A DNA stretch of 64,000 bases from Squalus acanthias (taxonomy: Eukaryota): positions 125,924,001 to 125,988,000 of the forward strand of contig CM059431.1 of the NCBI GenBank assembly GCA_030390025.1, read 5' to 3'. The stretch's first letter is position 1; each line of letters begins with the position of its first letter. The notes beneath the pieces were generated by a model. That model worked only from the letters and a program-made list of their open reading frames with translations, searched no databases and had not been told where the DNA came from. Positions 31,311-55,520 of the stretch are shown here, in pieces. Both the position numbers and the translations under genes were made by a program.

Positions 31311-32471
31311 TGAACGGATAATTACTAGTCCTAGCCCCTTTAGGGCTACCCTGGATCAGGCGTATTCCCCAGACGTTCACTTTCAACTAAAGTTTGAGGT
31401 AACCGAATCCTAAAGACGCTTAATTGGGTCTGAAGGTCCAGACTATCTCTCCCTAAAGGAAAGGAACAACCTGAAGATGTTACCGTCCTCCAGATAGCAC
31501 TTTTAATAAGTTTAGCTAGACTCCCCCAGAATTCTGCAACTCCTCACCAAAGAGCGTACAGAGATTGAGTTTGTGAGTTTGATACAGAAGTATTACGTGA
31601 GACAATTCTAAAAATATATAGATTTATTAAAGAACCGACATGTAATTTACAGTTGGTGATTCAATCATAACATTAACAGTTCCAAAAACAGATATCTTTT
31701 ACAATCTTACTATCAGAGATCCTTATTCTCAAATCTTAACTTCGTTACATTTTTACAGTTCTCAGTCTTTATTCCAGGATATCCAGCAAAATCAAATACC
31801 TTTTCATACCTTTGATCCCCGAGGTACAAAAAGTTGTAGACTTACAGAGCTTGCCTCTGAAGACCGAGAATCGCTTTGCCCCTTTACAGCGAATCTGTCA
31901 TCCCACTTGAAAGTTCAATATTTATATCCTTTTTCAGTGGTATGTCCTTTGAAGTTTTCTGCTGATGTAAGCTAATTATCTCTAGTCATTTTTCTGCTGA
32001 CTTCTGCTATTCTTACAGTCAGTTCAGCTGGTAGCTTTAAGAATCGTGTTTCTACCTTTAGGTGTTCGAAGCTTATCATAAAAACGATGTGACAGCAGAT
32101 GCATCTATTTGATGTCATTCTTATCAAGGTCTTCTGTTTGTGTCTTTTTAAGATGTGTAAATTAAAAACACCTCAACCGGGTGCACCATTGTCTTCTCAG
32201 ATACCTCAGCTGGTTGTAATACAGAATCATGTCTCCTGTGTTTCATTTGATTTCATTTTTACGAAGGCATATGTTTCTTAATTTTCTGTGTTTCTTTCCA
32301 AAGTGTTGGTTTAAGACACCTTAACAGGGTGCACCATTGTGTTCTTTCCAAGGCTTCAGAATATCAGGAACCTCCAACCTCCTGTTTCAATAAGGTTATT
32401 GATTCAGTGTCAACAACTTATCCTATCTCAATAGCCTGTATGCTGTTTACAGCTTCTCCATTGTTAGGTTT

Positions 32472-34183
32472 TGTAGAATTCGCAATATATCGCGATTTGT
32501 TTAATAAGGAGAAAACACAAAGTTTCGTTCAAACAGCTTTTATTTCAGTAGAATGCTGTCAGGTTTAAATTGGACACAAGCAGCCTGTAAAATGGCCGCC
32601 GCACCTCGTGACAGAACATTCTAGACTTTTCAACAGGCAGACAAGATGGCGTTCCATCAAACGTTTTTTCAAGATCGATAACGATTCAGCACAGTGAAGA
32701 TAATACACGAGACATTATGGGTTTACAGTATAAACATAGATACTGAAATCGGTCTCCCAGGTACAAAGGAAAGCCATTGTATCGAGTAATCAAGGGCCCA
32801 TCCAAAGGACATTAATATGTAAACTCCCAACGACTCTACGATGAGAGAGCCGTTAGCAGGTAGTTATACAGGACACTTGGAAGCCCCAAACCCCTCCAGG
32901 GAGAACACCGACCGATTTAACAATGGGAGAAATATTAACAGGTACTCAAACATTCATGAGTAGCCCCGAAACCCATTAAGGACGGAGATCACCCATACAA
33001 GACATTTGGGCGCCAAACCCTAAACAAAAGAATGGACATTATAGTTGGGCGGGAAACGGAAGATTTTTGCACTATAATTGCAGGCCCCAAACCGTCCATT
33101 CGCTCTCTTGCCGCGCTTGCTCGCTTGCTGCTTTTATCATCGTGGCTGCTCCTGTGTTTTATCCGGTCGATTCGTAACCTCGTGGCTGCTCCTGTGTACT
33201 CGTAGTTGGGCTTCTGCGTGCCTGTTGCCTCTTCTGAAAAGACTGTTGAACTTTCTGATCCGTTCGGATCTACCTCGTGTCGCGTAACGAAGACCTATGT
33301 TGGTAACTGGCAGCGGAACCAAAGGCCCGAGATGAGATGAGATGAGATGAGAGGAGAAGAGAAGAAGACCATATCCATCGCCACGGTCAGTAAATCCCGA
33401 CCGCGCCTATAGGTCGATCAGCCAAGTTTTCTCGCCAGGAAGTTTTCTTCTTTAAACTTCTAACAAAACATATTGCATCAATGATAACTGGACTGTGCAA
33501 ACACATCGTATCAATGATATTGACAACGGTGCTCCAAGATTAAACTTTGAAGCCCACCAACAGAGGTCTTCACCACAGCGGACGGTCCAGCCTACTAGCC
33601 GGAGCAGCAGAAGCAAGTAAACAAGTGGGACCAGGAGATCTCCTGACCGACACGTGGGAGCTGCGGTGAAAAACATCCGATCAGCTATTCGGAATTTCTC
33701 CGAGTTATTACGAGTGGTGAGCATGAGTCTCGAGATCCTACGAAGCTAGTTTAGGATAGATATTGATAGGGGAGGGTTTAAAGATTAAGGATATTTGTAA
33801 TGTGTGCCCTATTTACGTTGTGCCGTTCGTTCCTCGTTTCCCTAAGATTGACTATAACCGTTTGTAAGATTGTACTGTCATTAATCTGTGCGTATGACAT
33901 GTATTTCATAATTTTAAGTATCATGCAATAAAGATTTTCCATTTCGTACCATTCAAACCAAGTCTACATGAGTTTTATCTCCATTACTGCTCTCGCATCT
34001 AAGTCCAGTGTCTAGAACCGTAAGGGAGAGTGATTCGAACCACTCACAGGTGTGTCTAGTGTTCCCAGACTGGCTGGAGACCAGAACAGGCAACCAGGCC
34101 TAGACCCGCACTGACATACAGGCTGCACAGAGCCGCGTGAATCTCACAGGCTGCGAGACACGCAGGGTCAGGAATCCCTTACA
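32472..34183 (+). repeat. 5' LTR (1712 bp)
   Basis: Direct repeat of 43584-45295. TATAAT near 33073, AATAAA at 33927, (GAGAT)n near 33330. Confidence 0.97.
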
Positions 34184-34187
34184 GAAA

Positions 34188-35999
34188 ATGGCGACCGCGG
34201 CAGGACACTGGCAGCGAGAGGGTAGTGTGTTAGATTTTGGAATGACTGTACGAAATGTTATGCAGGAAAAGATAGCGGATTATGTGTTTGGAAAGGTTAA
34301 TCTAACTAAAAAGTGGATAAGCGAATTGTTAGCGGATAAGAGCCCACTAGAGGCAGCTGAAAGATGGACTGATAGTAAGGAACATAAAAAGGCAGTTGAG
34401 AAAGCAGTCTGGCTTATGTGCTACAAAAGGCAGGTTCAGATTTCAAACCAGACCATTACAGCGCTAACAGCTCGTGTCAGCCATTTAGAGGGAGAAATGG
34501 AGGAGAAGGTTTCTGGAGGGGAGGTGCTCATTAAGAATTTAAATGAGTTACACCAGGAAAGCCAGGAAGTCTCTAGTTACCTTAAAACAAGGATAGAGTA
34601 TCTCGAGTGCCAGGTCACTGAAGCAAAATTGAATGAGAGTAGGATGAAGGAAAGATGTAACCGCCAAGCTGCCCAGATAAGAACTCAAGAAGAGAGCTTA
34701 ATGGGGGTTAGGTCGGCGTATAAGTTGGCCCTTGAGGATAAGTTTCAGGGAGCCGACCATAGCGCCTGCCAAAAAGAGATAGAGAGCCTCAAAAAGGCCG
34801 TGAATAATGCGAACGGCATGGTGTGCCTTATCAATCCGTCGGCGCGCCAGCCGCTAGTAAATGAGAGATTTAGAAATTCCCCACCAAGTAAAGCAGAAGA
34901 AGTAGTAGCCACTGCGCCCTCCGCGCCCCCCAGCTATTCAGAAACCTGGGTTAGGGAGGAAGCAACGGAAGAAACAAAAGAGCCCATTGAAAAGGAGGTA
35001 GAAAAGGGATCGTTGTATCCAGTAACGGGTATTAAAAGGGGCCCGAGCAGAAACGGTGGGGAAGAACCGGGGGATCTCCTCGGACAGCTGGTGTTGCCTC
35101 ACAGTTCACATCAGCTGAGGGCTATGATAAACCACGTAAGGAAGCTGACCGAGATAGACGACCCTTCCGTACATTTCAGGGAAGTTGAGCAAGCCGCAGC
35201 CATTAACGGCTGCGATGATGGGGAGACAGCAAAAATGCTGCTGTTCTCGTTAGACAGCTCGGTCCTTCAGTGTCTCTCAGGCGAGAGCAAGAGGGGAAAC
35301 AAAAGTTATGAGGAATTGAAAAATGAGGTCCTAGAAGTAGTGGGGGCGAACGACGGAGGTCCGTTTGCTAGAGTGGGACAGACAGTGCAGATGGAGGGAG
35401 AACCCCCGAAGGTTTTTGCCGACAGGCTGTGGCCAGTATATGAGCGCAGCTGTCTAGGTGCGCCCGAGCGCGAAGATGTGGAAGGCGCCGCTCTAATTCA
35501 TTGGCTTAGGTGCATAATAGCCAACAGTTTACCAGCCGTTAGAGAGCAGGCAAAAGCCTGGTTCGATCCCAATGACCTCAACCTTACGGAAGAGTCGGTC
35601 TTGAATCGACTCACGTTAGGTTACCGTAACATAAGGGGTATGACGACACGTCCCTTTAAGGGAAGAGTACATGAGGTACGACCCGCAGCCCCGGCTCAAA
35701 GAGAGTGGCATCAGGAGGGTAATCGCGCCCCACAGGCAAGTAATGCCTGTTACGGGTGTGGGAAGACAGGGCACTGGCGCAAGCACTGCAGGAACCCTTG
35801 GAAGGATTCCAAGGATAAAAATCCCGCGGTCCGAGCCCAGGCGCCTGTCCCGCCTAAGGAAGCAAAGGCACCCACCCCTCCCGACGACCTCGAAGCAGTG
35901 TTAGGAGCCATGCGCAAGATGGTTTTGAATGCGCGTGGACAGGTGGCGGTCGCAACCGGCCCCGTAGGTGCCGCAGGACCGTCTAATAGTGCCCCATGA
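34188..35999 (+). CDS. gag: Gag polyprotein (coiled-coil N-terminus, PSAPPSY late motif, capsid-like region, one CCHC knuckle)
   Basis: Open 603-codon frame from the first ATG after the LTR; CYGCGKTGHWRKHC. Actual start codon uncertain. Confidence 0.9.
   Translation: MATAAGHWQREGSVLDFGMTVRNVMQEKIADYVFGKVNLTKKWISELLADKSPLEAAERWTDSKEHKKAVEKAVWLMCYKRQVQISNQTITALTARVSHLEGEMEEKVSGGEVLIKNLNELHQESQEVSSYLKTRIEYLECQVTEAKLNESRMKERCNRQAAQIRTQEESLMGVRSAYKLALEDKFQGADHSACQKEIESLKKAVNNANGMVCLINPSARQPLVNERFRNSPPSKAEEVVATAPSAPPSYSETWVREEATEETKEPIEKEVEKGSLYPVTGIKRGPSRNGGEEPGDLLGQLVLPHSSHQLRAMINHVRKLTEIDDPSVHFREVEQAAAINGCDDGETAKMLLFSLDSSVLQCLSGESKRGNKSYEELKNEVLEVVGANDGGPFARVGQTVQMEGEPPKVFADRLWPVYERSCLGAPEREDVEGAALIHWLRCIIANSLPAVREQAKAWFDPNDLNLTEESVLNRLTLGYRNIRGMTTRPFKGRVHEVRPAAPAQREWHQEGNRAPQASNACYGCGKTGHWRKHCRNPWKDSKDKNPAVRAQAPVPPKEAKAPTPPDDLEAVLGAMRKMVLNARGQVAVATGPVGAAGPSNSAP
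34189..34206 (+). promoter_or_regulatory. Primer binding site, tRNA-Ser-like (imperfect)
   Basis: TGGCGACCGCGGCAGGAC lies 5 nt after the LTR; 13/18 match to TGGCGTAGTCGGCAGGAT (tRNA-Ser complement recalled from memory). Confidence 0.6.
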
Positions 36000-38900
36000 C
36001 TAGAACCAGCACAGCCCGTCTACCTGTGTCCGCTCAGCTATGATGCGTGGAGGCGACCTGTGGTGGAGATGGAGGTAGAGAAACAGAAGGGCAGTTATTT
36101 GTTGGACACGGGAGCTTCTTGCACCATAATCCATACAGATGACCCTTTTGACTCGCCGCTATCTACCAAGGTCCCATTCACGCTGGCAGGGTTCACAGGG
36201 AAAGAACAGGCTGGCACGTTTTCCCTCCCGCTATCCATTCGTTTAGGAACACTTCGCCTTAAGTGGAAGTGTATACTGATGGCATGGCAAAAGGGGGGTG
36301 GAAGAGGTATTCTCGGGTCCGATCTCCTAGCGGGACACGGGATCCTCGTGGACCTCAGAAATCACTGTCTCTGGGGGGCTAAAGGTGAAAAAGGCGAGGT
36401 AATGGTAATTCAAGGGGAGGAAGAAACAGGGGTCCTGTGTACCGTACAGCCATCCGGAGGCTACGACCTCAGGCTTATGGTCGCAGATGTCCCAACGGAC
36501 ATGCAAACGTACGTGTCAGATAATATGCACGCGTTTGCAACCCACAAGCACGATTGTGGGAGGGTGGTCGGGTTTGAGGTCAGCGTAGATGGGGACCCCA
36601 TGACCCGACCCCAAAAGCAGTATAACTTCCCCAAAGAAGCAGAACCCGATATGGAGACAGCAATGTCTTCCTTGGTGCAGCAGGGCGTGTTGAGGCCGAT
36701 AGCCACACACGTGAACTCCCCATTATGGCCGGTTAGGAAGCCGGATAATTCGTGGAGAGCCACGGTGGACTACAGAGTCCTTAACAGTAACATTCCCGCC
36801 TGCGCGCCCACAGTAGCAGCAGTTGCTGACCTAATAGGGAGCATCCCAGCGTCCGCGACCACGTTCACGGTGCTGGATATCTCGAACGGTTTTTGGTCCA
36901 TCCCGCTGCGGCGAGAGGACCAGTACAAGTTTGCCTTTACGTTTAAAGGGCAACAGTACACGTGGAACTGTTTGCCACAGGGTTTCCACAATAGCCCCAG
37001 TATTTTTCATCAGTGTATGGCAGGAAGTTTAAAGGAGTTTAGTCAGCCCAATCAGATAGTACAGTATGTGGATGATTTGCTCCTATTTACGGACTCAAGG
37101 GAGGAGCACGGACCACTACTGGACGAGTTATTGGAGCTGTTAGCGAGAAAGGGTTTTAAAGTAAACCCAAAGAAAGCACGTATCGGTCAGCAGGAAGTAA
37201 AATTCCTGGGACTGACCCTACGCGCTGGGGAAAGAGTCATAGACAAAGCAAGGAGGGAGTCGGTGCAAGAATTACCGATTCCCAACAACGTAAGGGGTGT
37301 GAGGTCCTTCTTGGGACTGACCGGTTACTGCAGGGATTTTATCGAAGATTATGCGGCCACAGCGGCGCCGCTCCTCCGACTCCTCCATAAGGGGGTGGAG
37401 TGGCTTTGGGACGAGGGCTGCCAAGCAGCCTTCGAGAAGTTAAAAAGGGATCTGCAGACCGCGCCAGCCTTAGGGGCCATAGATGGGGGGAAGGAGTTTT
37501 TCCTGGAGGTAGCTGCCAGCGGAGACAGCTTAAGCGCCGTGCTGCTCCAAGAGCGTCACGGCAAGCTGAGGCCGGTTGTCTATTCATCCAGGGTATTAAC
37601 GGATGTGGAGAGAAGTTTCTCCAATTGCAAAAGGCACCTTTTAGCCACGCATTGGGCTGTGAAAAGATCAGCGATCTTCACAGGGCTCTCTCCCATCACT
37701 CTCCTCACACATCACACACCAACTAAGATGCTTCTGGATGGGAGGATTAAAGACAGGACCGTAAGCAGCGCACGCATTGCGCGTTGGACCCTTCTTCTCT
37801 CCCAGTTGGATCTTAGAGTAAAAGGTCTTTGCGAGCCCAGGCTTGCGGCCAATTTGGTATACCCCGGTACAGCCCACCGGTGTTCGGTGGAAGGGGTGTG
37901 GGACGTCAACATAGGTTTATGGGCCGGGATACATCCCACTGGGCGCGAGATTTATGTTGATGGGTCTAGCACAGTGTCTGCTGGCGAGCGACTCACAGGG
38001 TGTGGAGTTTATGACCCTGCGGCAGACCTTGCCCTGGCGATCAAGCTCCCTAGCACCATGAGCGCGCAGCAGGCTGAGCTGTCTGCCGTGGTGTACGTGG
38101 TGACCCACCCAGACATTTTCCCAACCCCATACACGATTTGCTCGGACAGTATGTTCACCTGCAATTCGTGTACGGAATACCTGGCCATTTGGTCCCGCCG
38201 CGGATACACCTCCGCGGACGGGCGACCTTTAACGGTGAAGCCCTTGCTGGAAAAGATCTTAGCCGCAGCAGTAGGGGAGGAAGGGGAGATTTTCATCCAT
38301 AAGGTGAAAGCTCACTCCTCCACAGAGCCCCGTGGGGAGGGCAACCGGCAGGCGGATGCGCTAGCCAGGGAGGGTGCCCGCGACGGCACTTTCTGGAACC
38401 CCTATAGGACCGGACCCATAGCAGCGGTCCGAGGCGGGGACGGGAATACCGGGAACACCAGGGTAGCATTGCCCCTAGACCTTAAGACCGTCCAAGCCCA
38501 GGATCCCGCCCTAAAAGCAGTCCTAAAAACGATTGCTGAGGGGAGGCAGGTAGAAGGTCCGTACAGTACGGCAACCCTCTCAGTTAAGGAAGGCATGCTG
38601 TTCCGCGGGGAGCAGTGGGTTGTGCCGCAGCAGCACAGGAGGGAATTCCTCCAGTTGGCTCACGAGGGACCAGGGGCAGGGCACCCCGGGCCCGAGGTTA
38701 CCTGGCAACGGGTAGAGCAAGCGGGATGGTGGCCGGGGCTCAGGGAACAAGTCCGCGAGTTCTGTGCAAACTGTCTTGTGTGCGCTGCAAACAACCCAGA
38801 CCCCCAGAAAAGGAAGGTGCCCATGGGACACGTAAGAAGGGTAGAGGGACCATGGCAGTCGATACAGATCGACTATATAGGACCCCTGCCCACCACCCAG

Positions 38901-40523
38901 GGAGGTTATAAATACTGCCTCGTCCTGGTAGATGTGTTTTCCAAGTGGGTGGAAGCCTTCCCTTGTCGAACAGCTACGGCACTGGGTACAGCAAAAATCT
39001 TGGTCCGGGAAGTGTTCTCGCGGTGGGGACTCCCCCGTTTCGTGGAGTCAGACCAAGGGAGTCATTTCACCGGCCAGGTGATGCAGAACACCCTCATGCT
39101 TTTGGGCATTGAAGGGAAGTGGCACGTAGCGCACAATCCCCAGTCATCCGGGATTGTTGAACGTATGAACCGGACCCTGAAGGAGAAATTGAGGAAAGAG
39201 ACTAGGAACTCGCCCCAAAAATGGGCGGAAGTTCTGCCTTTAGTCCTCATGGGGGTCCGGGCCAGTCAGTCAAAAAGTACGGGGTACTCCCCGCACGAGG
39301 TAATGACCGGCAGGCTCATGCGAACCCCCACCCATGTGCTAGCCCCGGTGCTCACTGAGGGTCAGCTTCAAGAGATCAGCAGGGACAAGTTCGCCCAAAC
39401 TCTCTTGGAGCGCCTGAAGCAAGTTTATGAGCAGGCGGCTGGGAACATGGGAAGGCAGCATCAGGGCAATCGCTTGTTGCTGGAACCCCGCAAAACGCGG
39501 GAGTGGGAAGTAGGAGACCAGGTCATGGTCAGAAACTACGCCAGAGTAGGGAGTCTGGAACCACTGTATATGGGACCCTACAACATTGTAGACAAGGCGA
39601 GTCCCATGGTTTACGCCGTAAAGGTACCTCGGCGCACTAAGTGGTTCCACATAAACCAATGCAAACTGTACCAGCCGGGTGCGCAGGGGAAAACTACAGG
39701 GGTAAATCCCGCCAATGGGAAAACACAGCCCCAGGTAGGACCACAAGGCACACAGGCAGGCGTAGCAGCTTGCATCAGAGGAAGGGACATCCCGGACGAT
39801 CATGCAGCGTTTTTCTGGAGTTGGGGGTTGGATGACGAAGAACCCAGGGTACCCTGGTCAGATGAGGATAGTGCAGATGAGCATAGTGATGATGACGGGT
39901 GGTTCCTGAGGAACGGTCTGGGGGGAATGGGGCCGATAGGTAGAGATCCACACGGGGTGGACACACAAGCTGCAGGTCCCGACAACAGGAGGGAGGAGCT
40001 AGAGGAGGCAGGGCCAGCCGCTATAGGAGCACAGAGAGTACCAATGTGGTTCCCAGAGATGTGGCCGCCCGCTTTGAACGTCCAGTCCTCAGGGGAGGCA
40101 GAGATCACGAGTGAAGGGCCGCCTGCTGGGCCGAGCAGGGCGGAGCCACGAACTGCCAGCCCCGAGGTTAGGGAGGCGGAGTCAGCGGAGGCGGAGCCGG
40201 CGACTGTGATGGAACCCCAGGTCGTCCCGTTAGAGGTCTCGGAACCCGGTCCGTCCGTCACGGAACCCCCGCCCATAGCAACTCCCCGTAGGTCAAGTAG
40301 AGAACCCCAGCCCAGGAGGATGTGGTCATGTCCCCAGACTGCCCCAAGGCGTAAAATTCAGGTTAAGATAACCCGGGTAGAGACAGGCCACATCGCAGCA
40401 GTAACAGGCTGCGGCAGATCAGAGGAAAGGGTCAGCGCAGCAACAGGCTGCGGCAGATCAGAGGGAAGGGTCAGTGCCCTCCCACCGTCGGGAAGAGCTC
40501 GCAGCAGCCTTCTCAGAATTTAA
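36000..40523 (+). CDS. pol: Pol (protease, RT, tether, RNase H, integrase, C-terminal extension), in frame with gag past a single TGA
   Basis: LLDTGA; LPQGFHNSP and YVDD; degenerate RNase H-like tether; IYVDGSS..SAQQAEL..SDS..GNRQADALA; HHCC; QIDYIG..ESDQGSHF..GIVERMN; GPY. Confidence 0.96.
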   Translation, partial: LEPAQPVYLCPLSYDAWRRPVVEMEVEKQKGSYLLDTGASCTIIHTDDPFDSPLSTKVPFTLAGFTGKEQAGTFSLPLSIRLGTLRLKWKCILMAWQKGGGRGILGSDLLAGHGILVDLRNHCLWGAKGEKGEVMVIQGEEETGVLCTVQPSGGYDLRLMVADVPTDMQTYVSDNMHAFATHKHDCGRVVGFEVSVDGDPMTRPQKQYNFPKEAEPDMETAMSSLVQQGVLRPIATHVNSPLWPVRKPDNSWRATVDYRVLNSNIPACAPTVAAVADLIGSIPASATTFTVLDISNGFWSIPLRREDQYKFAFTFKGQQYTWNCLPQGFHNSPSIFHQCMAGSLKEFSQPNQIVQYVDDLLLFTDSREEHGPLLDELLELLARKGFKVNPKKARIGQQEVKFLGLTLRAGERVIDKARRESVQELPIPNNVRGVRSFLGLTGYCRDFIEDYAATAAPLLRLLHKGVEWLWDEGCQAAFEKLKRDLQTAPALGAIDGGKEFFLEVAASGDSLSAVLLQERHGKLRPVVYSSRVLTDVERSFSNCKRHLLATHWAVKRSAIFTGLSPITLLTHHTPTKMLLDGRIKDRTVSSARIARWTLLLSQLDLRVKGLCEPRLAANLVYPGTAHRCSVEGVWDVNIGLWAGIHPTGREIYVDGSSTVSAGERLTGCGVYDPAADLALAIKLPSTMSAQQAELSAVVYVVTHPDIFPTPYTICSDSMFTCNSCTEYLAIWSRRGYTSADGRPLTVKPLLEKILAAAVGEEGEIFIHKVKAHSSTEPRGEGNRQADALAREGARDGTFWNPYRTGPIAAVRGGDGNTGNTRVALPLDLKTVQAQDPALKAVLKTIAEGRQVEGPYSTATLSVKEGMLFRGEQWVVPQQHRREFLQLAHEGPGAGHPGPEVTWQRVEQAGWWPGLREQVREFCANCLVCAANNPDPQKRKVPMGHVRRVEGPWQSIQIDYIGPLPTTQGGYKYCLVLVDVFSKWVEAFPCRTATALGTAKILVREVFSRWGLPRFVESDQGSHFTGQVMQNTLMLLGIEGKWHVAHNPQSSGIVERMNRTLKEKLRKETRNSPQKWAEVLPLVLMGVRASQSKSTGYSPHEVMTGRLMRTPTHVLAPVLTEGQLQEISRDKFAQTLLERLKQVYEQAAGNMGRQHQGNRLLLEPRKTREWEVGDQVMVRNYARVGSLEPLYMGPYNIVDKASPMVYAVKVPRRTKWFHINQCKLYQPGAQGKTTGVNPANGKTQPQVGPQGTQAGVAACIRGRDIPDDHAAFFWSWGLDDEEPRVPWSDEDSADEHSDDDGWFLRNGLGGMGPIGRDPHGVDTQAAGPDNRREELEEAGPAAIGAQRVPMWFPEMWPPALNVQSSGEAEITSEGPPAGPSRAEPRTASPEVREAESAEAEPATVMEPQVVPLEVSEPGPSVTEPPPIATPRRSSREPQPRRMWSCPQTAPRRKIQVKITRVETGHIAAVTGCGRSEERVSAATGCGRSEGRVSALPPSGRARSSLLRI

Positions 40524-40809
40524 AGGGGCCGCCCTGAGAACGGGCGGCACTGTAAAGTTATTAGGTTAAGTTTTAAGTTTTAGTTCAAGGTTAAGTTTGT
40601 AGTTTTAATAAGGCTAAGTTTGTAGTGTTTTGAACAGAAAACGATAAAATGATGGGAGTTTTAAGGCTAGGTTTAGAGGAAGTCTATTCAGCAAAGGTTG
40701 AAGTTTACGTGAGGCGAGGTCAGGGGACCCGCTCACCCTTCACAACAGCCAGAGACCTTTTTGCGAGGCTGGCTACCTCATTCTATCTGATCACAGGAAC
40801 CAAGGAAGG

Positions 40810-43161
40810 ATGGAACGACTTCTAGTATTGCTCGTGGCAATCGGATGTGGATTGGCCTATCGAGGCCACACCAAGGATGTCGTGGTGTTTGGATGTTCCG
40901 GGGACACGGCCCCCATCGCGGTGGATGGGACCGGAAGACGGAAGGCAGAGGGGACCAGCACCTATTTCCACAAGGGAAGGTGGCCAGGATGGCTGGGAAC
41001 GAACTCAACGGAGTATTCCAGCACATCGGGGTTCGCCTACAAAGAGACTTCTTTAATGTGCCCCAAAGTACGGATCATCGCACCCAGGATCAGCGTCACC
41101 GTCGGCAAACGGATTTGTTTGACCTGTAGTGGGGATGTCCCATTGAGCCGATGGTGGTGGCTGCGAAAGCTGAGCAAAACTATGAGAAACTCTTCGGTCG
41201 AGTGGGAACGACTGGGTAATAATACCCATCGGACAATTACGGGGACAGACGGACAAGTGAAAGTCTGTTGGGACAAATGGTGGGAACCGGATGAGGGGAT
41301 TTATGTATGTATGTGGGGGTCAAAGTACGTTTGCCCCAAAGGCATCTCCATATTTTTTATTAATCAGTGGCAGGATAACGGACAGGGGATGAGGTGGGAT
41401 GCGAGCACCAGGGGGTGCGGAGCCCCATTCTCCCCGATCCCAGTAAATGCCACTGAACTCATTACGCGCCCACGCAAAGCCCCGCCCACGATTCCGGTGG
41501 TTCTAGCTGAGGAAGAAGGGTGCCCTAAAACTAGTAAGGGACCCGGGAACGGTTTGGTACTGGTCCCCACAGACCAGATACTATTTCAGGGGGTACATTA
41601 CGCGGTGGCCTCGGTGATTTTAAATCTCACTGAGGTACGGTTACCAGAGTGGTGCCCCAAAAAGACGGAACAGTTGTATCAGGTCCTGTTGACCAAGATG
41701 TTCAGACAATTTTACGAGTTTGATTTTGCAGAAATTGATAAGGCAAGTTTGTACACCGCACCGCAGGAAGTTTTGGATCAAGTAGGGAGGCAAAGAAGGG
41801 GTTTGGTGAACGATGCGTTCACTGCTTTTAACACAGGGACATCTGTGGTCAACGCTCTAGACAGTGTGGAGCTGCAGACCCAGATTAATGGTTTAAAAAC
41901 ACAGTTAAAAGACATTCTAACAGATGAGAATAAAGTGGTAGGGTCGGGTCTGCATGAGGACCAAGCCATGACTCTCCATTTAAAGGAAATTATAGCAGAG
42001 CTGGAGAAACATGCGCGTACGGTAAATGCCCTGATCAGGGAAGATCGGAATGCATCCGATCAAGCTGCGCAGAACGAGGTGTGCGTGCTTTACGGGGCGT
42101 GGTTACTGGGCGAGGGCCGCAGTAATTTGGAGGATTTAAAACAAGGTTTGGTTCCGTCCTGGATAAGTAACAAACACCTACGGGCGCTCCACCCTTTTCA
42201 GAACGCATTAAGTCCGTGCCAGCTCAGGCTAGCTTCGGAAGCTTACCCAGTCCCCGTGGACTGCGGACGTTCAAACCATACTATTATGGGAATAGTATTA
42301 CGCATGCCGGTTTTGGGCAACACAGCAAAGCCCGCCCCGGTATATCGGGTAGAGAACATTGGTGTCATTCAGGGGGGAGCCCACATTCGTTATGCAGCGG
42401 TTCCACCTTACGTCATCCGCTGGGAGCAAACGATGACAGGTACAGATCTCTCTGGTTGTCGTGGCAGGGGAGCACACATAATACTGTGCCCCCAGCACTT
42501 GAATGCCTTTTTAACACCACAGTGCGGGTTCAGAACGGCTGGCGCCAAGTCCATGAATTGCACCATGGAGGCAATGGCACAAGATCATGTGCCTCCGCAG
42601 GTAGCATACATCGGGGGTGGAACATATTGTGTTACCACTGCAGCGCAACACTACCAGCATGGAAACCGTAGCCGGTGTCCGGTGAGTGACAGCAGTTTCT
42701 GTTTTAAACCCAGGGCTGAAGTTCAAGTAGCACAACAGCGAATTATCCCAATCCCTGAACCATCCACTGTTCATCTCACAGTAAAAGAGAATTTCACCGA
42801 CTTGCAGCGATTTGTCGCACATTTTGGATACCTCATTCCCCCTCTCCCTGAGCATTTAACCAAACTTCTGAAAGCCGTCGCGGTATCACAGAAACATTTT
42901 TATACATTAGAACAGAAAACTGTCGAAATAGGAACAGACATTTTGGACATAGTGGTTCCACCGTGGTGGAATCTGTTCACCAATATTGAAGTGCCTTCAT
43001 GGATCCGAATAGCCTCCCACATTTTAGTCGTCTGTCAAGTGTTTATTGTAGTGTACCTATTGTTCATACATTGTAAAAGAGACAAGCGCCTCACCAAGCA
43101 TGAAAACACGGGAGAGTGGCGAGAACGTTACGTGCGCGTGCACGATGAGAGCACCGTGTAA
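40810..43161 (+). CDS. env: Envelope glycoprotein, 783 aa: signal peptide, Ig-like segment, furin site, F-protein-like fusion subunit, TM anchor
   Basis: MERLLVLLVAIGCGLA signal; RQRR|GLVNDAFTAF; heptad repeat; Cys-rich region; ILVVCQVFIVVYLLFI TM; N-glycosylation sequons; upstream acceptor-like TTCTATCTGATCACAG ending at 40796. Confidence 0.9.
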   Translation: MERLLVLLVAIGCGLAYRGHTKDVVVFGCSGDTAPIAVDGTGRRKAEGTSTYFHKGRWPGWLGTNSTEYSSTSGFAYKETSLMCPKVRIIAPRISVTVGKRICLTCSGDVPLSRWWWLRKLSKTMRNSSVEWERLGNNTHRTITGTDGQVKVCWDKWWEPDEGIYVCMWGSKYVCPKGISIFFINQWQDNGQGMRWDASTRGCGAPFSPIPVNATELITRPRKAPPTIPVVLAEEEGCPKTSKGPGNGLVLVPTDQILFQGVHYAVASVILNLTEVRLPEWCPKKTEQLYQVLLTKMFRQFYEFDFAEIDKASLYTAPQEVLDQVGRQRRGLVNDAFTAFNTGTSVVNALDSVELQTQINGLKTQLKDILTDENKVVGSGLHEDQAMTLHLKEIIAELEKHARTVNALIREDRNASDQAAQNEVCVLYGAWLLGEGRSNLEDLKQGLVPSWISNKHLRALHPFQNALSPCQLRLASEAYPVPVDCGRSNHTIMGIVLRMPVLGNTAKPAPVYRVENIGVIQGGAHIRYAAVPPYVIRWEQTMTGTDLSGCRGRGAHIILCPQHLNAFLTPQCGFRTAGAKSMNCTMEAMAQDHVPPQVAYIGGGTYCVTTAAQHYQHGNRSRCPVSDSSFCFKPRAEVQVAQQRIIPIPEPSTVHLTVKENFTDLQRFVAHFGYLIPPLPEHLTKLLKAVAVSQKHFYTLEQKTVEIGTDILDIVVPPWWNLFTNIEVPSWIRIASHILVVCQVFIVVYLLFIHCKRDKRLTKHENTGEWRERYVRVHDESTV

Positions 43162-43583
43162 TAGGAAAATGGCGTCACTCCCGCTCGCCGCGTGCGCCGC
43201 GGAAGTTTGTACTCATTGTAAATACGTTGGAAACTCGACATGTTTAAGAGTTAGGATTTGTTTATTTTGGTGATGGTGTTGATTGTTTGGTTTTGGGTTT
43301 TGTTTTTCCTTTCCCTGAATAAAAGACAAATATACAGGTGATGCGTGAGGTATCGGCCTGGTTACGCCGGGAAGGAAAACAAGTGGTGTAAGTTTAAGGG
43401 CAAATGATGCCTACGGTGATATAAAATGTGATTTTCTTGGGAAATAAGGACGACACAGAGACCCTAGTTAAGTTAAAATTTATGGGATTAATTTACTGGA
43501 TTCGGAGTGAAATCGAGATAAGATTGCTCACCACTGTGATTTTTGATACGATAAGCGGAGTTATTCGCATCAACAGGAGGGAC

Positions 43584-45295
43584 TGTAGAATTCGCAATAT
43601 ATCGCGATTTGTTTAATAAGGAGAAAACACAAAGTTTCGTTCAAACAGCTTTTATTTCAGTAGAATGCTGTCAGGTTTAAATTGGACACAAGCAGCCTGT
43701 AAAATGGCCGCCGCACCTCGTGACAGAACATTCTAGACTTTTCAACAGGCAGACAAGATGGCGTTCCATCAAACGTTTTTTCAAGATCGATAACGATTCA
43801 GCACAGTGAAGATAATACACGAGACATTATGGGTTTACAGTATAAACATAGATACTGAAATCGGTCTCCCAGGTACAAAGGAAAGCCATTGTACCGAGTA
43901 ATCAAGGGCCCATCCAAAGGACATTAATATGTAAACTCCCAACGACTCTACGATGAGAGAGCCGTTAGCAGGTAGTTATACAGGACACTTGGAAGCCCCA
44001 AACCCCTCCAGGGAGAACACCGACCGATTTAACAATGGGAGAAATATTAACAGGTACTCAAACATTCATGAGTAGCCCCGAAACCCATTAAGGACGGAGA
44101 TCACCCATACAAGACATTTGGGCGCCAAACCCTAAACAAAAGAATGGACATTATAGTTGGGCGGGAAACGGAAGATTTTTGCACTATAATTGCAGGCCCC
44201 AAACCGTCCATTCGCTCTCTTGCCGCGCTTGCTCGCTTGCTGCTTTTATCATCGTGGCTGCTCCTGTGTTTTATCCGGTCGATTCGTAACCTCGTGGCTG
44301 CTCCTGTGTACTCGTAGTTGGGCTTCTGCGTGCCTGTTGCCTCTTCTGAAAAGACTGTTGAACTTTCTGATCCGTTCGGATCTACCTCGTGTCGCGTAAC
44401 GAAGACCTATGTTGGTAACTGGCAGCGGAACCAAAGGCCCGAGATGAGATGAGATGAGATGAGAGGAGAAGAGAAGAAGACCATATCCATCGCCACGGTC
44501 AGTAAATCCCGACCGCGCCTATAGGTCGATCAGCCAAGTTTTCTCGCCAGGAAGTTTTCTTCTTTAAACTTCTAACAAAACATATTGCATCAATGATAAC
44601 TGGACTGTGCAAACACATCGTATCAATGATATTGACAACGGTGCTCCAAGATTAAACTTTGAAGCCCACCAACAGAGGTCTTCACCACAGCGGACGGTCC
44701 AGCCTACTAGCCGGAGCAGCAGAAGCAAGTAAACAAGTGGGACCAGGAGATCTCCTGACCGACACGTGGGAGCTGCGGTGAAAAACATCCGATCAGCTAT
44801 TCGGAATTTCTCCGAGTTATTACGAGTGGTGAGCATGAGTCTCGAGATCCTACGAAGCTAGTTTAGGATAGATATTGATAGGGGAGGGTTTAAAGATTAA
44901 GGATATTTGTAATGTGTGCCCTATTTACGTTGTGCCGTTCGTTCCTCGTTTCCCTAAGATTGACTATAACCGTTTGTAAGATTGTACTGTCATTAATCTG
45001 TGCGTATGACATGTATTTCATAATTTTAAGTATCATGCAATAAAGATTTTCCATTTCGTACCATTCAAACCAAGTCTACATGAGTTTTATCTCCATTACT
45101 GCTCTCGCATCTAAGTCCAGTGTCTAGAACCGTAAGGGAGAGTGATTCGAACCACTCACAGGTGTGTCTAGTGTTCCCAGACTGGCTGGAGACCAGAACA
45201 GGCAACCAGGCCTAGACCCGCACTGACATACAGGCTGCACAGAGCCGCGTGAATCTCACAGGCTGCGAGACACGCAGGGTCAGGAATCCCTTACA
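43584..45295 (+). repeat. 3' LTR (1712 bp)
   Basis: Same length as the 5' LTR; one substitution found by eye (T32782 / C43894). Confidence 0.97.
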
Positions 45296-45666
45296 GTTTT
45301 TAGATTTTCAATCCCAGTTTGTCATGTTACAATAAGGCCAGAATTATTTCAGAGAATGGTGTATTTTTCTGAATATGGCTTATTCCTTCACACAACCCTC
45401 TTGACCAAGAAATGAACTCGAGCATTGAGTCAATGTTACTAATAAGGTTACAATAGCACATTAATTTCATGAAATTCACAAAAGCCTAATCATGTGCTAC
45501 ATGAAAATTCCTTTTAAGTCATCCTAGGACAATGTTTTGCCTTATTTTAAATTGAACACAATTTAAAAGGATGACAGGTACATTGTCATGCAATTACAAA
45601 ACAACATGTACTTAGAATGTCCAATCGGCAGATGTACGTTCTGTAGAGGTGAGTTATTCATATGAG

Positions 45667-46014
45667 TCAAGGAGACGTCATTTGGAAGTAGCTGAAGCTT
45701 GACACGCTGTTCCTTCGATCCAGCGTGTGGACACATTCTTGTTTTCGTAAAGGCCTTGCCAGGCGCTCAGTTGATTCCATCTTCATCCGCGGTGTTTTCC
45801 TCCTTCGTTGAAGTAACTTGTTGATCTTTCTTTGTTTCGGTTGTGGCTTTTCGCGAATCCAATTCCTGAGGCGTTGCCAAGCATCGTGTGGAGGAGTCGG
45901 CGACACCGTCTGACTGACCGTCGTCAGTAGTTCGATCGCATCCATTTCCTGTGTCGTGCTCCAAGCTGGGTCTTGAAAGACAGTGTACAACTGCACCTTG
46001 TATTGTTCCTCCAT
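45667..46014 (-). pseudogene. Possible env leader remnant of the foamy-like provirus
   Basis: ATG-initiated ORF overlapping the pol 3' end where env would start. No recognisable motif; under 300 bp remain before the LTR. Confidence 0.35.
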
Positions 46015-48943
46015 TCCGGTATCCCGCAGGACATCTTTTGAGATTGTCTATGGAGACAGTTTTAAGAATATGCTTGCCATTCGGCTGATTAATATGTATT
46101 TTAACTGTTCTTTTGTTAATAACAGTATGTATTTGAACAGGTTTTTTCCACTTTGGTTTTAAACCAGGTTTTTGCTCAAACTTCTTTTCCTGTACCCATT
46201 CTCCTACTAGGGGTTGCCATGCTTTGTTTGTCAATTTTTTCTGCCTATTTGCCTCCCTTATCCTCTGATCAATTTGATGAATCTCCTCTGTTATTTCTTT
46301 TTTTAAATCTAACTGTCGCTGTCGGGTCAAGGACTCAGAGAGTGCAGAGGCAATAAAAGAACTATGGGTATGCGGTGTATGCATCTCAACCCCATACATC
46401 AGATAATATGAAGTTTTAGGGGACACTGTCCCTGATGCAGATGCGGGCACATTATTAAGTGATAGCTGCACCTCTGGAATGACGGTGGTCCACTTATTTC
46501 CCCTGATTCTCAACAGTTTGACCAATAGCTTTTTTACTTCCTGGTTTTTACGTTCCACCAGCCCCGCTGATTGCGGATGACGTGGCGTGCTGTGCTCTAA
46601 CCCAATCCCCCTTTGTTCGCAGTAGTCTTTGAAGACCTTGGAGACAAAGGCTCCGTCTTTAACAGAGTGTAAGATTTTGGGTGCACCAGCTACAGTAATT
46701 ATGTCAGTAATAGCATTGGCGAGTTCGTTTTCCGAAACAGTTTTTGTGGGGACCAGCCAGCAGAAGGAAGTGCATCCATCTACACAAACGAGAACATATC
46801 TGTATCCAAAAGACGGGGGAAGTGGTCCAATAAAGTCAATAAAGAATTTTCCCATTGGCTCTTCAGCTTTCACAGGAGCCAATGGTGGTAGCTTAATTAG
46901 TGATGATTTATTGATTAAATAGCATGGCTCACAATTTGCCACGTATGTTTTACAGGCCTTAAGCATGCCTGGCCATCAATATAAGGGGGTCAATTTGCAG
47001 AATGTTGTTCTGGCACCACAATGTGCTAGACCTATGCCCTCGTGAGCTTCTTTTACAAGCTGTTCTCGTTTGTGTCTCGGGGGTACTTCTCTGTTTTCCT
47101 TGGGCAACTTAACTAGCACAATACCAGTAGGGATTTCCGAATAAAAGTACTTTGGTGGATATCCTGGTGGATTCTCTTTTGTTGGGTCTAATAGCTGAAT
47201 CAGTTCCTCATCCTGATTAGCTGCCCGTTCTGCCCTAGTGATTACACTAATATTGGCAGGCCTCTCTTGAGGGGATGTCATGCAGACCGAACGTTTCACT
47301 TGTTCATCTGCAAGACTGTTTCCTTTTGAGTGTACTGTCCCAGTGGTATGCCCGTTTACATGAAACACCTGAAAATTCTGTTTCTCCATTCTCGAACGGA
47401 GAATGTCTTCCCACAATGACTTATGTTTTATGGGTTTACCCTTATGATTGGTAAAATTTGTTTGTTCTCAGAAAACTAGATCTTGGTTATATCCTCTTTT
47501 ACAGTAGTCACTATCCGTACAGATTAGTGTGGGTTTAATAGGGTCTGCCTTTTCTAAAGCATACCATAATGCTGCAGCTTCAGCATATTGTGCTGTCTTA
47601 TGGCCAAGGGGTATGGACAGTAATTCTTCTGGATAAAAAGAATAGGAATCTCGAAAAGTCCCTACTACTATCCCCATGCCAACTGAGGATTGTTGGGATG
47701 TCCCTTTTTTAATCGTCATTGAAGATCCATCGCAGTAAATGACTTGATGGTATTCTGTAAGCGGTCTCACAGGCATTTGTCTGATTCCCTCCTCCGTATC
47801 ATCATCCTCCTATGATGGGGAGATGCTCTAAGTCCATTTCCGGGGAGAGGAATTTAAAAATGAGTGTAGGATCATTCAAGAATGATGCCCATTTATCATA
47901 TTGGATCTGGGTGGCTCTTTTTTATGTTGATTAAATACCCAGCTGTTGTAAGTCTGGATAAAACACTATCAATGGCTTTCAAGTGTTCTTGGAGATTGTC
48001 ATGTGACAGATATATGTCGTCCACATAAGAATTGACGTTAGGTAGGTCTTTTAAAAGGTCAATGATGTGGGCTGAAAAGAGAACGGGACTGTTTTGAAAT
48101 CCCTGGGGCAATCTGGTCCAGCAGTGCTGATGGCCATCGGGTCCAGTCATCACTGTTTTTGGCCAATTAGCTTTTTCGATTGGATGTGACCAGAAGCTGT
48201 TTGCCAGATCAATACAAGATTTATATTTTTTCCTCGTGATTCCAGAGAAGGGCTGTGGAATTTTGCTGTTGTGCAGTATGTGGGGCCATTACCCTAGTTA
48301 AGGCTATATAATCGACCACTAATCGCCACCTCCCATCTGGTTTAGCAACACCAAACAATGGTGAATTAGTTCTAGATGACATTTTGAATAAGACACCTTG
48401 TTCTGTTAGTTCTTTGAGCGTTGTTAGCAGATCTATTTTTCCTTTGTGGTCTTGAATAGGCCACTGTTTTTTAGGTTTGTGCCAGCCAGCATCAAATGGG
48501 TGGGGTTTGATGTCTATCTTTCCACATTGATTTGGATGGCGTTGTAGATACGGGTAGTATCTATTAATTAGTTGCTCGAGGAGGTCTTTGCCTCCCCCCG
48601 CTAGGCAAGTTCGATCAAGCTGTGTCCGAACATGTTTTTCCCTGTCATCCTGGTCTGTGGATGCTTCTACAGGTCTGGTTGAGATTTTAAGGTACTGTTT
48701 CATGTCTGGTTGTCTTATAATGAGGGAACAGGTCAATTGTGGTACCAGTCCTACATCTAGGGTCACCGTGATTCCATATATGGTAATAGGTATTTTGTAA
48801 AAATTAATTATTTTGGTTTTGTCTTGTGTGAATCCCCCTAATGGTCTTTTACAAATTGGGCTCCCCAAATCTGTCCACTTAGTTTTTATAATTGCAAGAT
48901 CTATTACAGTGTAATCAGCTCCAGTATCAAACAGGGCCTTCAC
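45767..48943 (-). pseudogene. pol: Foamy-like pol (protease, RT, RNase H, integrase) with stops, frameshifts and an internal deletion
   Basis: LFDTGA; KPDGRWRLVVDY; CWTRLPQGFQNSP; YVDDIYLSHD; YCDGSS..GMGIV..IPLGHKTAQYAE; NQDEELIQLL..GYPPKY; KFFIDFIGPLPPS.GY.YVLV; HPQSAGLVERKN. Confidence 0.93.
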
Positions 48944-49071
48944 TTATGTGTTTGTGGGCAAGGTTGCCAAGGCATAGGGGAATTCAAGAGGCCCTGGCTG
49001 GGTGCCCGGCCTTCCATCCTGGGATTGTTCATCCTCAGGATCCTGAGCTTCATTTGCTGCTTTGTCTTTAA

Positions 49072-50589
49072 TTATTTTAACTGATTTTTGTTCCTCCCTC
49101 TTGGGGGATCATGTTTTCCAGATATCTTAGGGGGTTTGTCGGACATTTTATTATCTTGACGATCCTCCTGTTGGGGTGGACGTTGGTTCTGCCAGGAATC
49201 TTTTTGATCCCCATTTCGGTTTTCCCGGTATCCTCCCGTGGCTCTCTGATAGTTTTGGCCAGTGTAAAAGCTGTCCCCATAGGGAGTCCACTGTCCTTCG
49301 CTTTCCTTTCGAGGTCTAGCCCCTCATCTATCCCATCTTTCCGGGGAGAAATCTTTCTCGTATTGTGGGCGAGTTGGGGGTGTAAACCTTCTGGAATACC
49401 CTCTTGGGGGTCCCGAGCCACGAGTTTGTGTCTGGGCGGGGTGGACTTGAGACTTGGGTCTATACAGTCCTTGTTTCTGAATACCAAAGGTACCTTCTCC
49501 GTTTTTTTTATCCCTAGTTTCTGATCTCATTGTAGGTTTAGTTTGGGGTAGACCTAAGAGGTCATGATTTAATTTGATAATACGATTGACATTATCCCAT
49601 CTTTGTTGGTTATCTCGATAATCGTTTAGAGCACCCTCACAGGCAAGTTTGAGGGCTGTATTTTGGTATTGATTGGCCAGGCAACCATGGACAATGTCCC
49701 AGTTATCCTGTGTAAGTACTTTGCCTAATCTGTAGACAGCTACCAGCCCTTTAGTTGTGGCTGTATTAGTGAGTATTTCCTTGATGGAACCCATTACATG
49801 CCCTCCCTGAGTTGCCGTGAGAACATAGGCGTATATTTGAACCCAGTTGTTACACTGGTTTAATGGGGGAATTAAGTCTGAACTTAGTATCATTTGTAGT
49901 AGTTGCCTCAGGTGTTGGGCATTCCAATCTTGGCAACAGGTTTCCAATTTATCAAGGTTAGTTAGAATCCAGCAGGTTTTTTCCTGGCTGGTGTTTCCTG
50001 GTCTACCACACATTGTGTAGATAGAGCTCAGGTTTACGTGACCTAGGGGCGCAATGTGTGATTGCTGGAGTTGGCTTACTGGGCCAGTAATCATTGCACC
50101 TCCAGCATTTAGATAAGATTGAGCTAGTACCTGTTGGCATTGATTATAATGGATTCTAAGCTGTCTATAGTTTTCTCGAAGATTCTGGTCATTTATTTCT
50201 TCATGAGTTTGCCACCTTAACCGGAATCCATGGCCCCCAGGAGCATAGGCTGCTCCGGGTCCTACTATTCAGCCATGGTTGCCACCACCTTGTTGGGCAC
50301 CGTTCATTAGGCCTCCCAATTGTGCGGGTGTGCACCTTATCATTAAGGAATTTTGTGGATTTGGAGTATTTGTTTGATTATCCCACTGGATATTCTGTAT
50401 CGCCTGGTTCTGGGGATCAACATCAATCGTGCCATGAGTTCTAACGACTCCATCGGTATCAAAGACTTCTATTTCAAAAATTATCACTTGGTTTTGTGGA
50501 GGTACAGGGATAGGATTATTTCCCCTCATAAAGCAATCATTTGAATTTCCTAATAAGAAGACTTGGCCAATTCCGACAGGGTTTGCCAT
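49072..50589 (-). pseudogene. gag: Foamy-like gag (one frame, two internal TGA stops)
   Basis: ORFs 50269-50589 and 49324-50094 are in frame. LTQDNWDIVHG resembles the spumaviral (D/N)NWDLVWG block. G/R-rich C-terminus, no CCHC knuckle. Confidence 0.82.
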
Positions 50590-55516: not shown

Positions 55517-55520
55517 CACC

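Follow-up and report, generated by a model that had tools for sequence, protein, structure and literature searches.

The stretch of DNA analyzed here (the window) covers 64,000 nucleotides of the Squalus acanthias genome (assembly GCA_030390025.1, contig CM059431.1, positions 125,924,001 to 125,988,000, forward strand) and carries a provirus (32472-45295, + strand) with open gag, pol and env genes between paired long terminal repeats (LTRs). The env open reading frame (ORF; 40810..43161, + strand, ATG at 40810 and stop codon at 43159-43161) encodes an envelope protein (Env) of 783 amino acids (aa). Our reading, to which we give a probability of about 0.78, is that this open env of a recent endogenous retrovirus (ERV) specifies a protein with a predicted fold like that of the paramyxo/pneumovirus fusion (F) protein, that the protein is likely a furin-primed trimeric class I fusogen, and that it was inherited within an old retroviral lineage. 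The idea of a retrovirus with an F-like envelope is already known. Lokiretroviruses (Loki) have a published F-like Env (PMC7947760, which reports Loki in 0/6 cartilaginous fish genomes), the foamy (spumaretroviral) Env is F-like by cryo-EM in the account given in PMC11468914, and F-type Envs on LTR elements, the errantiviruses, are described as widespread in invertebrates (bioRxiv 2023.10.26.564294).

Layout and predicted fold of the envelope protein

All the env features given below lie on the + strand. The protein begins with a putative signal peptide (aa 1-16; 40810..40857), called by eye and modelled as a helix at residues 3-12. The F2-like part of the fusion core (41521..41787) contains a conserved Cys238, a GPxxG motif, a long strand and a helix at residues 284-305; homologues keep C238 in 12/12 cases and C282 in 12/13. 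A preliminary description of this DNA, made from the letters alone, had placed an RQRR motif at 41788-41799 with about 450 aa after it. Both points hold: RQRR, a putative furin-type cleavage site, occupies aa 327-330 and is followed by 453 aa. By way of comparison, 37 paramyxovirus F proteins have a median of 439 aa after the cleavage site, and the three of four gamma-type Envs in which a site was found have 178-197 aa. The segment just past the site (candidate fusion peptide, 41800..41865; predicted local distance difference test, pLDDT, below 50) had been called a small-residue fusion peptide. Small residues are present (10 of 25 are G/A/S/T); the expected hydrophobicity is weak, since the mean Kyte-Doolittle value is 0.42 versus 0.80-1.40 in the 37 paramyxovirus fusion peptides, making this one atypically polar.

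Further downstream, model helices at aa 353-376, 384-410 and 417-444 would form heptad repeat A (HRA) and the central helices (aa 353-444; 41866..42141). The heptad repeat proposed for this region survives as helices, and heptad periodicity taken alone is barely above chance (for the three helices tested, the observed a/d score was attained 241, 2034 and 239 times in 5000 shuffles). Next comes a Cys-rich beta region corresponding to F domains I and II (aa 477-645; 42238..42744; pLDDT of the block 67-94). The seven cysteines singled out beforehand are all present there, and are kept in 83-100% of the homologues covering them (22/22, 22/22, 20/24 and 23/23 at aa 550, 560, 572 and 584; 22/24, 18/21 and 18/20 at aa 607, 623 and 631). 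The second helical stretch and the transmembrane (TM) helix described earlier were recovered as a predicted heptad repeat B (HRB)-like helix (aa 682-711; 42853..42942; pLDDT about 50) and a TM segment at aa about 737-756 (43018..43077), which leaves a 27-aa tail to the stop. In agreement with the preliminary description, neither the CX6CC motif nor a motif like the immunosuppressive domain (ISD) was found in the window Env. The 35 rows of the alignment used for folding (A1) contained no ISD, and their single CX6CC-pattern match (in P0049) falls in a hydrophobic stretch near the C-terminus. Gamma-type Envs, in contrast, have an ISD, a CX6CC motif and a TM subunit of about 180-200 aa, none of which is present in the window Env.

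To model the protein we used alignment A1, composed of the query plus 34 proteins obtained by the relative search and a cluster look-up; 49 env relatives were found among 1.84 billion representatives. The model has a mean pLDDT of 59 and a predicted template modelling score (pTM) of 0.44, with core blocks 241-300 and 421-650 mostly at pLDDT 70-94 and the N-terminus and the cleavage loop below 50. Foldseek against the PDB, the check proposed beforehand, returned the F protein of human parainfluenza virus 3 (hPIV3; 1ztm) first, with E=1.3e-11, and all 36 matches listed were paramyxo/pneumovirus F proteins. With VIA-align, the post-fusion Nipah F gave Z 12.7 with 291 residues aligned (root-mean-square deviation, rmsd, 5.3). 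A further, wide search, which did not depend on Foldseek and took in 48,161 chains, placed 16 F-type chains on top (Z 11.8-6.3), the first unrelated chain having Z 5.0; the foamy Env 8rm0 was one of the 16 (Z 7.9, rmsd 5.5, 277 residues aligned). No gamma-, beta- or lentiviral TM structure appeared among the best 50 matches of this search, a result that does not exclude a family outside those 50. Among the predicted structures in BFVD, the model matched lispi/arli-like glycoproteins (E=1.1e-15), the Envs of walleye epidermal hyperplasia virus 1 (WEHV-1; 2e-10), walleye dermal sarcoma virus (WDSV; 6.7e-8) and feline foamy virus (8.4e-6), and also baculovirus F (E=1.3e-10 to 2.5e-8), paramyxovirus F and a fish filovirus glycoprotein. 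The ESM Atlas returned one chordate cluster at 0.84 for the whole Env, under its lead threshold.

In the best cases, aa 245-660 of the predicted model align to F residues about 26-445 with Z 11-12.7 and rmsd 5-6. Over these residues the window Env is thus predicted to take the three-domain F0 fold (I-III), with F2-like and F1-like pieces, and the F-type fold that had been proposed from the letters is supported by Foldseek, VIA-align and the sequence profiles. The layout needs one amendment. The preliminary description had given an F-like layout to the post-cleavage subunit, which does look F1-like; since the structural alignments start some 80 residues ahead of the cleavage site, at aa 243-245 (nt about 41540), where they pair with the start of F2, the F unit also includes an F2-like piece upstream of the site. 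The paramyxo- and pneumovirus F proteins (1ztm; Newcastle disease virus, 3maw; respiratory syncytial virus, 3rki; Nipah, 8dmj) therefore resemble the modelled Env in the F0 fold at aa 245-660, and in having an F2-like piece, a furin site and an F1-like subunit, some 450 aa long, that contains HRA, a Cys-rich beta region, HRB and TM. They differ from it in sequence (7-16% identity), in matching the F family PF00523, in their more hydrophobic fusion peptide and in lacking its extra N-terminus of 230 aa.

Could the F match simply reflect generic helices and a beta-rich region in a low-confidence model, the Env being of another divergent type? The mean pLDDT of 59, the large rmsd in several of the structural matches and the near-chance heptads would fit such an explanation. 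Against it, the core blocks are mostly modelled at pLDDT 70-94, about 290 residues align at rmsd 5-6, a clear gap separates the F-type from the unrelated chains, and the sequence profiles, which need no model, agree with the F type. We regard this as the least probable of the explanations considered here.

About 230 residues precede the fusion core, an extension that paramyxovirus F lacks. A Cys / Trp / D-x-G-x-Y-x-C pattern, as expected for the B-strand Cys and C-strand Trp of an immunoglobulin beta-sandwich, is visible in it and is kept in alignment A3, and an immunoglobulin (Ig)-like domain is weakly predicted at aa about 89-181 (41074..41352) from sub-threshold Pfam matches and a low-confidence model. 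Of 11 rows, 4 matched Pfam Ig_3 (E=0.0011 at best, below the cut-off), a PDB search with the N-terminal region gave a sub-threshold match to CRTAM (E=0.07), and the ESM Atlas gave Ig-type clusters at 0.78-0.79, under its lead threshold. The model of this region (mean pLDDT 42) produced a list dominated by Ig folds (best match Z 6.2, rmsd 3.1, 83 residues aligned), and Foldseek of the same low-confidence model found nothing under E=0.001. Together these results suggest an Ig-like domain within the extension, which by its position would bind cells. The distant homologues P0015, P0036 and P0021 have differing N-terminal extensions. P0015 is named 'Ig-like domain-containing' in UniRef and P0036 has a weak V-set match (E=0.045), so the Ig-like tip may be family-wide.

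Sequence profiles, reverse transcriptase and the origin of the fold

Profiles built from the env family recovered F-type envelopes of other retroviruses. Against the PDB, the best match was the foamy Env 8RM1 (E=0.001). Against 400 ORFs from 35 viral loci, the top positions were taken by a WDSV-type Env (locus L035, 6e-14), a foamy Env (L033, 5e-7) and a snakehead retrovirus (SnRV)-type Env (L001, 1.4e-6), while the gamma-type Envs had E>0.2 and the best reversed-sequence control E=0.07. The SnRV and WDSV types of L001 and L035 were assigned by their match to reverse transcriptase (RT) rows in the supplement of PMC7947760. The collinearity of both Envs with the profile starts at a C-P-x(4)-P-x-x-G motif and extends across the basic site and the Cys region, and neither CX6CC nor an ISD was found in either of them. 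A weak Baculo_F match (E=0.0011, below the cut-off) was seen in one of the 47 homologues searched. With hhalign, the F-type envelopes obtained probabilities of 95, 89 (the F alignment), 81 and 72%, and three other retroviral Envs less than 4%. The claim that the fusion subunit is 'not a retroviral TM' consequently falls, because the foamy Env is itself F-type and the envelopes of WDSV and SnRV, both classed as orthoretroviruses, match the profile. Equally, a best match to a spuma-type Env, which had been set against the F type, cannot separate F from retroviral: the spumaretroviral Env is F-type (PMC11468914) and is the best PDB profile match.

The full profile scored the WDSV Env at 45.7 bits, foamy at 22.8, SnRV at 21.3, the best paramyxovirus F at 15.2 and the gamma-type Envs at 4.2 or less; the F set comprised 37 paramyxovirus F proteins from 50 loci, 13 having failed a length/motif filter, and the foamy set 11 of 12 loci. 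With the core only, that is, without HRB and TM, the order was foamy (25.1 bits), WDSV (19.0), best paramyxovirus F (18.3), SnRV (17.0) and gamma-type (below 0), and the maximum reached in 200 shuffles of each was 7.4 bits. We had considered the WDSV Env as specifically the nearest relative, and dropped it because its lead was gone in this core-only control. Since the order of the scores changes with the core-only profile and with the reverse profile direction, all the F-type envelopes compared, whose mutual identity is 10-15%, are by sequence about equally distant from the window Env, and a donor is not nameable. The kinship with the F proteins of negative-strand RNA viruses, put forward in the preliminary description, stands as homology; nothing in the core scores shows a specific link to these viruses.

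These scores bear on the possibility that this retroviral lineage acquired env, separately from the foamy and Loki envelopes, out of a paramyxo-, pneumo- or lispi-like negative-strand RNA virus, with the Ig-like tip being added later. Such a capture would explain why paramyxo/pneumovirus F and, for predicted structures, lispi/arli-like glycoproteins obtain the highest structural scores, and why the window Env is scored by a paramyxovirus F profile and goes unlisted with a foamy one. The sequence, however, shows no preference for F, the best of the 37 proteins staying below foamy with both the full and the core profile; the fusion peptide is unlike the hydrophobic one of paramyxoviruses; the F fold is present in four other retroviral groups; and the structural scores of foamy Env may be lowered by its large inserted receptor-binding domain (RBD). 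Capture seems to us unlikely on balance. Because the foamy, walleye and snakehead envelopes match about equally well, the fold likely stems from an old retroviral lineage rather than from a negative-strand RNA virus, and deep descent, not recent capture from a mononegavirus, probably explains why this Env has it in common with those of foamy viruses, Loki, WDSV and SnRV. The foamy Env (8RM0/8RM1) illustrates both the likeness and the distance: it is also a retroviral Env with the F fold, and the one with the top PDB profile match and the best core score, but its RBD is inserted inside the core and it has an N-terminal membrane-spanning leader (PMC11468914), whereas the extra region of the window Env precedes the core.

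We also placed the provirus by its RT. The closest RT relatives are one at 89%, followed by frog and coelacanth Pol at about 50%; among 21 viral loci the best match is SnRV (L001), with 43.5% over 262 aa. The RT tree (44 rows, LG+G4) contains 25 of 32 RT matches and 18 of 35 loci, redundant rows being omitted, and none of its rows are named ERV-L, ERV4 or CmiERV; a second, quick tree agrees in outline. In it the window RT lies inside a retrovirus clade of 38 rows (100/98) that excludes both Loki-type rows (P0088 and P0097, so labelled by a by-eye motif match to published Loki rows), and joins the Pol of frog and coelacanth (92/88) within an unresolved grade at the base. The seven foamy RT rows form a 100/100 clade that excludes it, and the WDSV RT is on the class I side. 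As judged from its sequence, the provirus RT is in a basal SnRV/class III-like grade, and membership in the SnRV-related ERV clade is likely. SnRV-related ERVs (clade Huo) are reported in all major vertebrate groups (PMC6001957), elephant shark carries such elements as CmiERV lineage I (PMC4422223), and the ERV RTs of cartilaginous fish are described as mostly class III (PMC11089739). The closest named relatives of env are in skate and sawshark (65-79% in local pieces), then in other sharks and in frogs, which by itself points to a cartilaginous fish as the likely host. RT relatives in frog and coelacanth, and named non-shark env relatives in frogs, would fit pol and env having travelled together.

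Our first reading of the element had been a lokiretrovirus carrying the published Loki F-like Env, which would extend the host range to cartilaginous fish. The top Pol matches are annotated as NYNRIN-like, NYNRIN being another name for CGIN1. In PMC7947760 the Loki integrase is linked to CGIN1, and the Loki combination of a dual RNase H (tether plus RNase H) with an F-like Env is also found in our provirus; neither feature is exclusive to Loki. The Loki Env rows start their core with a similar GP-x-x-G-I-V-L (by eye). Nevertheless, the complete Loki Env rows (3/4) begin directly at the core, without an N-terminal extension, and their fusion peptide is hydrophobic. Moreover, in the published alignment the motifs of the window RT resemble the SnRV row and differ from the Loki rows, and forcing the window RT together with the Loki-type rows was rejected (approximately unbiased (AU) test, p=0.0036). 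On the RT motifs, the trees and the AU test the Loki reading was dropped, and we now hold it to be highly improbable.

Several observations weigh against inheritance of an F-like fusogen within a retroviral lineage. Single-sequence Pfam and PDB searches with the window Env found no F family, and PF00523 was matched neither by it nor by the 47 homologues. The Env model is monomeric and of modest confidence (363 of 783 residues with pLDDT below 50, fusion-peptide region unresolved), and structure scores favour paramyxo/pneumovirus F over foamy Env (Z about 11 versus 7.9). In the reverse direction, the paramyxovirus F profile (37 sequences) finds the window Env, at only 12.3 bits, and the foamy profile misses it. 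The 45.7 bits of WDSV, a match with a high bias score, fall to 19.0 once HRB and TM are removed. In neither tree is SnRV the sister of the window RT clade, whose 92/88 support falls under the star threshold. No fixed order emerges among the F-type envelopes, and both descent and repeated capture would fit the scores.

The provirus and its genomic surroundings

The anatomy of the provirus is observed directly in the DNA. A 4-bp target-site duplication (TSD; GTTT) flanks it at 32468..32471 (left copy) and 45296..45299 (right copy). The motif occurs once at a paralogous unoccupied site in the same window (about 55411-55430), and an initial 5-bp reading was dropped because the flanks and this empty site give 4 bp. 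The 5' LTR (32472..34183, + strand) is 1712 bp long, has TG...CA ends, a TATA-like element at 33073 and AATAAA at 33927; the 3' LTR (43584..45295, + strand), also 1712 bp, differs from it at 1 position. With the shark rate that PMC4422223 assumes, this divergence of 1 in 1712 bases corresponds to about 1.3 million years, and with a mammalian rate to about 0.13 million years, both very rough since they rest on a single mismatch; by its sequence, the provirus was recently inserted.

The primer-binding site (PBS; 34189..34206, + strand) is of tRNA-Arg type and lies 5 nt past the LTR end. In support of this call, among 18 metagenome loci whose tRNA 3' end is complementary to the site, none of them a host tRNA, 13 were identified as tRNA-Arg, 1 was unresolved and 4 gave no call; no tRNA gene was found within the 64-kb window. 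The gag ATG (34188) overlaps the first bases of the PBS (34184-34206 region), and, with the PBS only 5 nt past the terminal CA, the 1.7-kb LTR contains the entire 5' leader. The gag gene (34188..35999, + strand) is open for 603 codons from its ATG and encodes a CCHC knuckle (zf-CCHC match below the Pfam cut-off, E=0.33). It ends in TGA followed by CTAG, and pol (36000..40523, + strand), also open, continues in the same frame with protease, RT, tether, RNase H and integrase, assigned by Pfam. Pol is thus likely made through UGA readthrough of the gag stop, as far as the sequence goes. UGA-CUAG is a known readthrough context, alphavirus and mammalian, in PMC13517186, and the retroviral contexts listed there differ. 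A stem-loop, predicted without a shuffle control, begins 9 nt downstream of the first base of the gag stop (35997-36003 region). The pol tail (39700-40523) adds about 270 residues past the integrase C-terminal domain, which are acidic, Pro/Glu-rich and contain a short duplicated motif. A candidate splice acceptor (40785..40796, + strand), found by inspection, precedes the env ATG, and a short purine-rich tract (43572..43583, + strand), the candidate polypurine tract (PPT), abuts the 3' LTR. No accessory ORF of at least 150 aa is present between env and the 3' LTR. The hallmarks of Retroviridae are therefore present: an RT in the retrovirus clade, the order LTR-gag-pol-env-LTR, PBS, PPT and TSD.

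Among known systems, SnRV shares with the provirus an in-frame gag-pol with a stop between and an Arg-type primer site; the SnRV primer is tRNA-Arg. The SnRV Env, as its sequence indicates, is collinear with the window env profile and has no CX6CC or ISD. SnRV differs in the end of gag (UAG, versus UGA here), in its Env of about 1100 aa (783 here, with a short tail) and in the 1-nt LTR-PBS spacer of L001 (5 nt here), whereas the window provirus has 1.7-kb LTRs and lacks a 3' accessory ORF of at least 150 aa. The Envs of WDSV and WEHV-1 share with ours the best full-profile match, collinearity through the TM, the BFVD matches and the lack of CX6CC and ISD, but WDSV has an RT on the class I side, an Env of about 1230 aa and a lead that is absent on the core alone. 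Foamy viruses are set apart by their RT clade, outside which the window RT falls, and by gag, which in the window provirus encodes a CCHC knuckle and shares the reading frame of pol. Finally, baculovirus F and errantivirus Env are reached through the BFVD matches to baculovirus F, but the window Pol is retroviral, not Ty3/gypsy.

The provirus sits in one LTR of an older foamy-like ERV, pieces of which lie at 31520-32467 together with 45300-45394, at 45944-50268 (minus strand) and at 54475-55518. Against foamy Pol, the broken pol of this element reaches 37-39% along about 600 aa, and as much as 55% within an RT piece. The similarity between the two LTRs of the element is about 95%, and the foamy env profile found no env in it. 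An older copy of the U3-side part of the provirus LTR family, 76% identical, lies at 62-873 (minus strand). Remnants of RT and endonuclease of the long interspersed nuclear element (LINE) type, identified by inspecting translations, are present at 17858-19024, 23751-24872 and 51375-53540, one of them inside the foamy-like element.

Half or more of the env words were found in 20 sequencing runs (X1-X20) from 9 studies and 6 organism codes, and contigs 90-100% alike span the full set of 30 env bins in four runs that carry four organism codes. Either a family spread over several species or slow evolution of the hosts would agree with this coverage. None of the 24 listed runs with env words is on record as an RNA run; the env region is covered by two runs guessed to be RNA, and this does not amount to evidence that it is expressed. 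Since the LTR and the flank are both repeats, insertional polymorphism is unreadable from contigs at the 3' junction. Pieces of the env family are annotated as host exons in P0005, P0006, P0011 and P0040 (Niban, cadherin-related, zinc-finger and F-box genes), and these are probably gene-model artefacts.

Proposed function and meaning for retroviral envelopes

From these features we infer how the Env could work, every functional step being of that kind. A spliced env mRNA would be translated and its product would enter the endoplasmic reticulum through the signal peptide, and Env trimers would form. RQRR would then be cleaved, with both parts staying together as they do in F and in foamy Env. 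Paramyxoviruses have a separate attachment gene besides F, whereas the window provirus encodes an F-type env without one, and the N-terminal extension would bind the cell in place of the attachment protein. The peptide exposed by cleavage would be released into the target membrane, and HRB would zipper onto the HRA coiled coil. For the trigger we lean, by analogy with foamy Env (PMC11468914), towards the low pH of endosomes over a receptor.

In the accounts given in PMC11468914 and bioRxiv 2021.11.05.467493, retroviral Envs are split into an F-type (foamy, Loki) and an unrelated short-TM orthoretroviral type, with the epsilonretroviruses left unclassified or without a model. In a literature search covering mainly open-access papers, we did not find an F-type Env described for SnRV-like viruses, for WDSV and other epsilonretroviruses or for shark ERVs. 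To be counted in one survey of ERVs that are currently invading, an Env had to show a recognised TM motif (PMC10435555), and screens of this kind could miss envelopes such as that of the window provirus.

Together with the matches to the WDSV and SnRV Envs, the window locus suggests that F-type envelopes extend far into the viruses classed as orthoretroviruses, and the origin of the retroviral env becomes testable by a structure-guided tree. More tentatively, and with odds we would put somewhat short of even, the F-type fusogen may be ancestral to all Retroviridae, having been kept in Loki, foamy, SnRV-like and walleye epsilon viruses and in this young family, here with an added Ig-like cell-binding tip. 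If so, the short gamma-/beta-type TM would be a later replacement, which would decide between the scenarios for the origin of the envelope left open by Wang and Han (PMC7947760).

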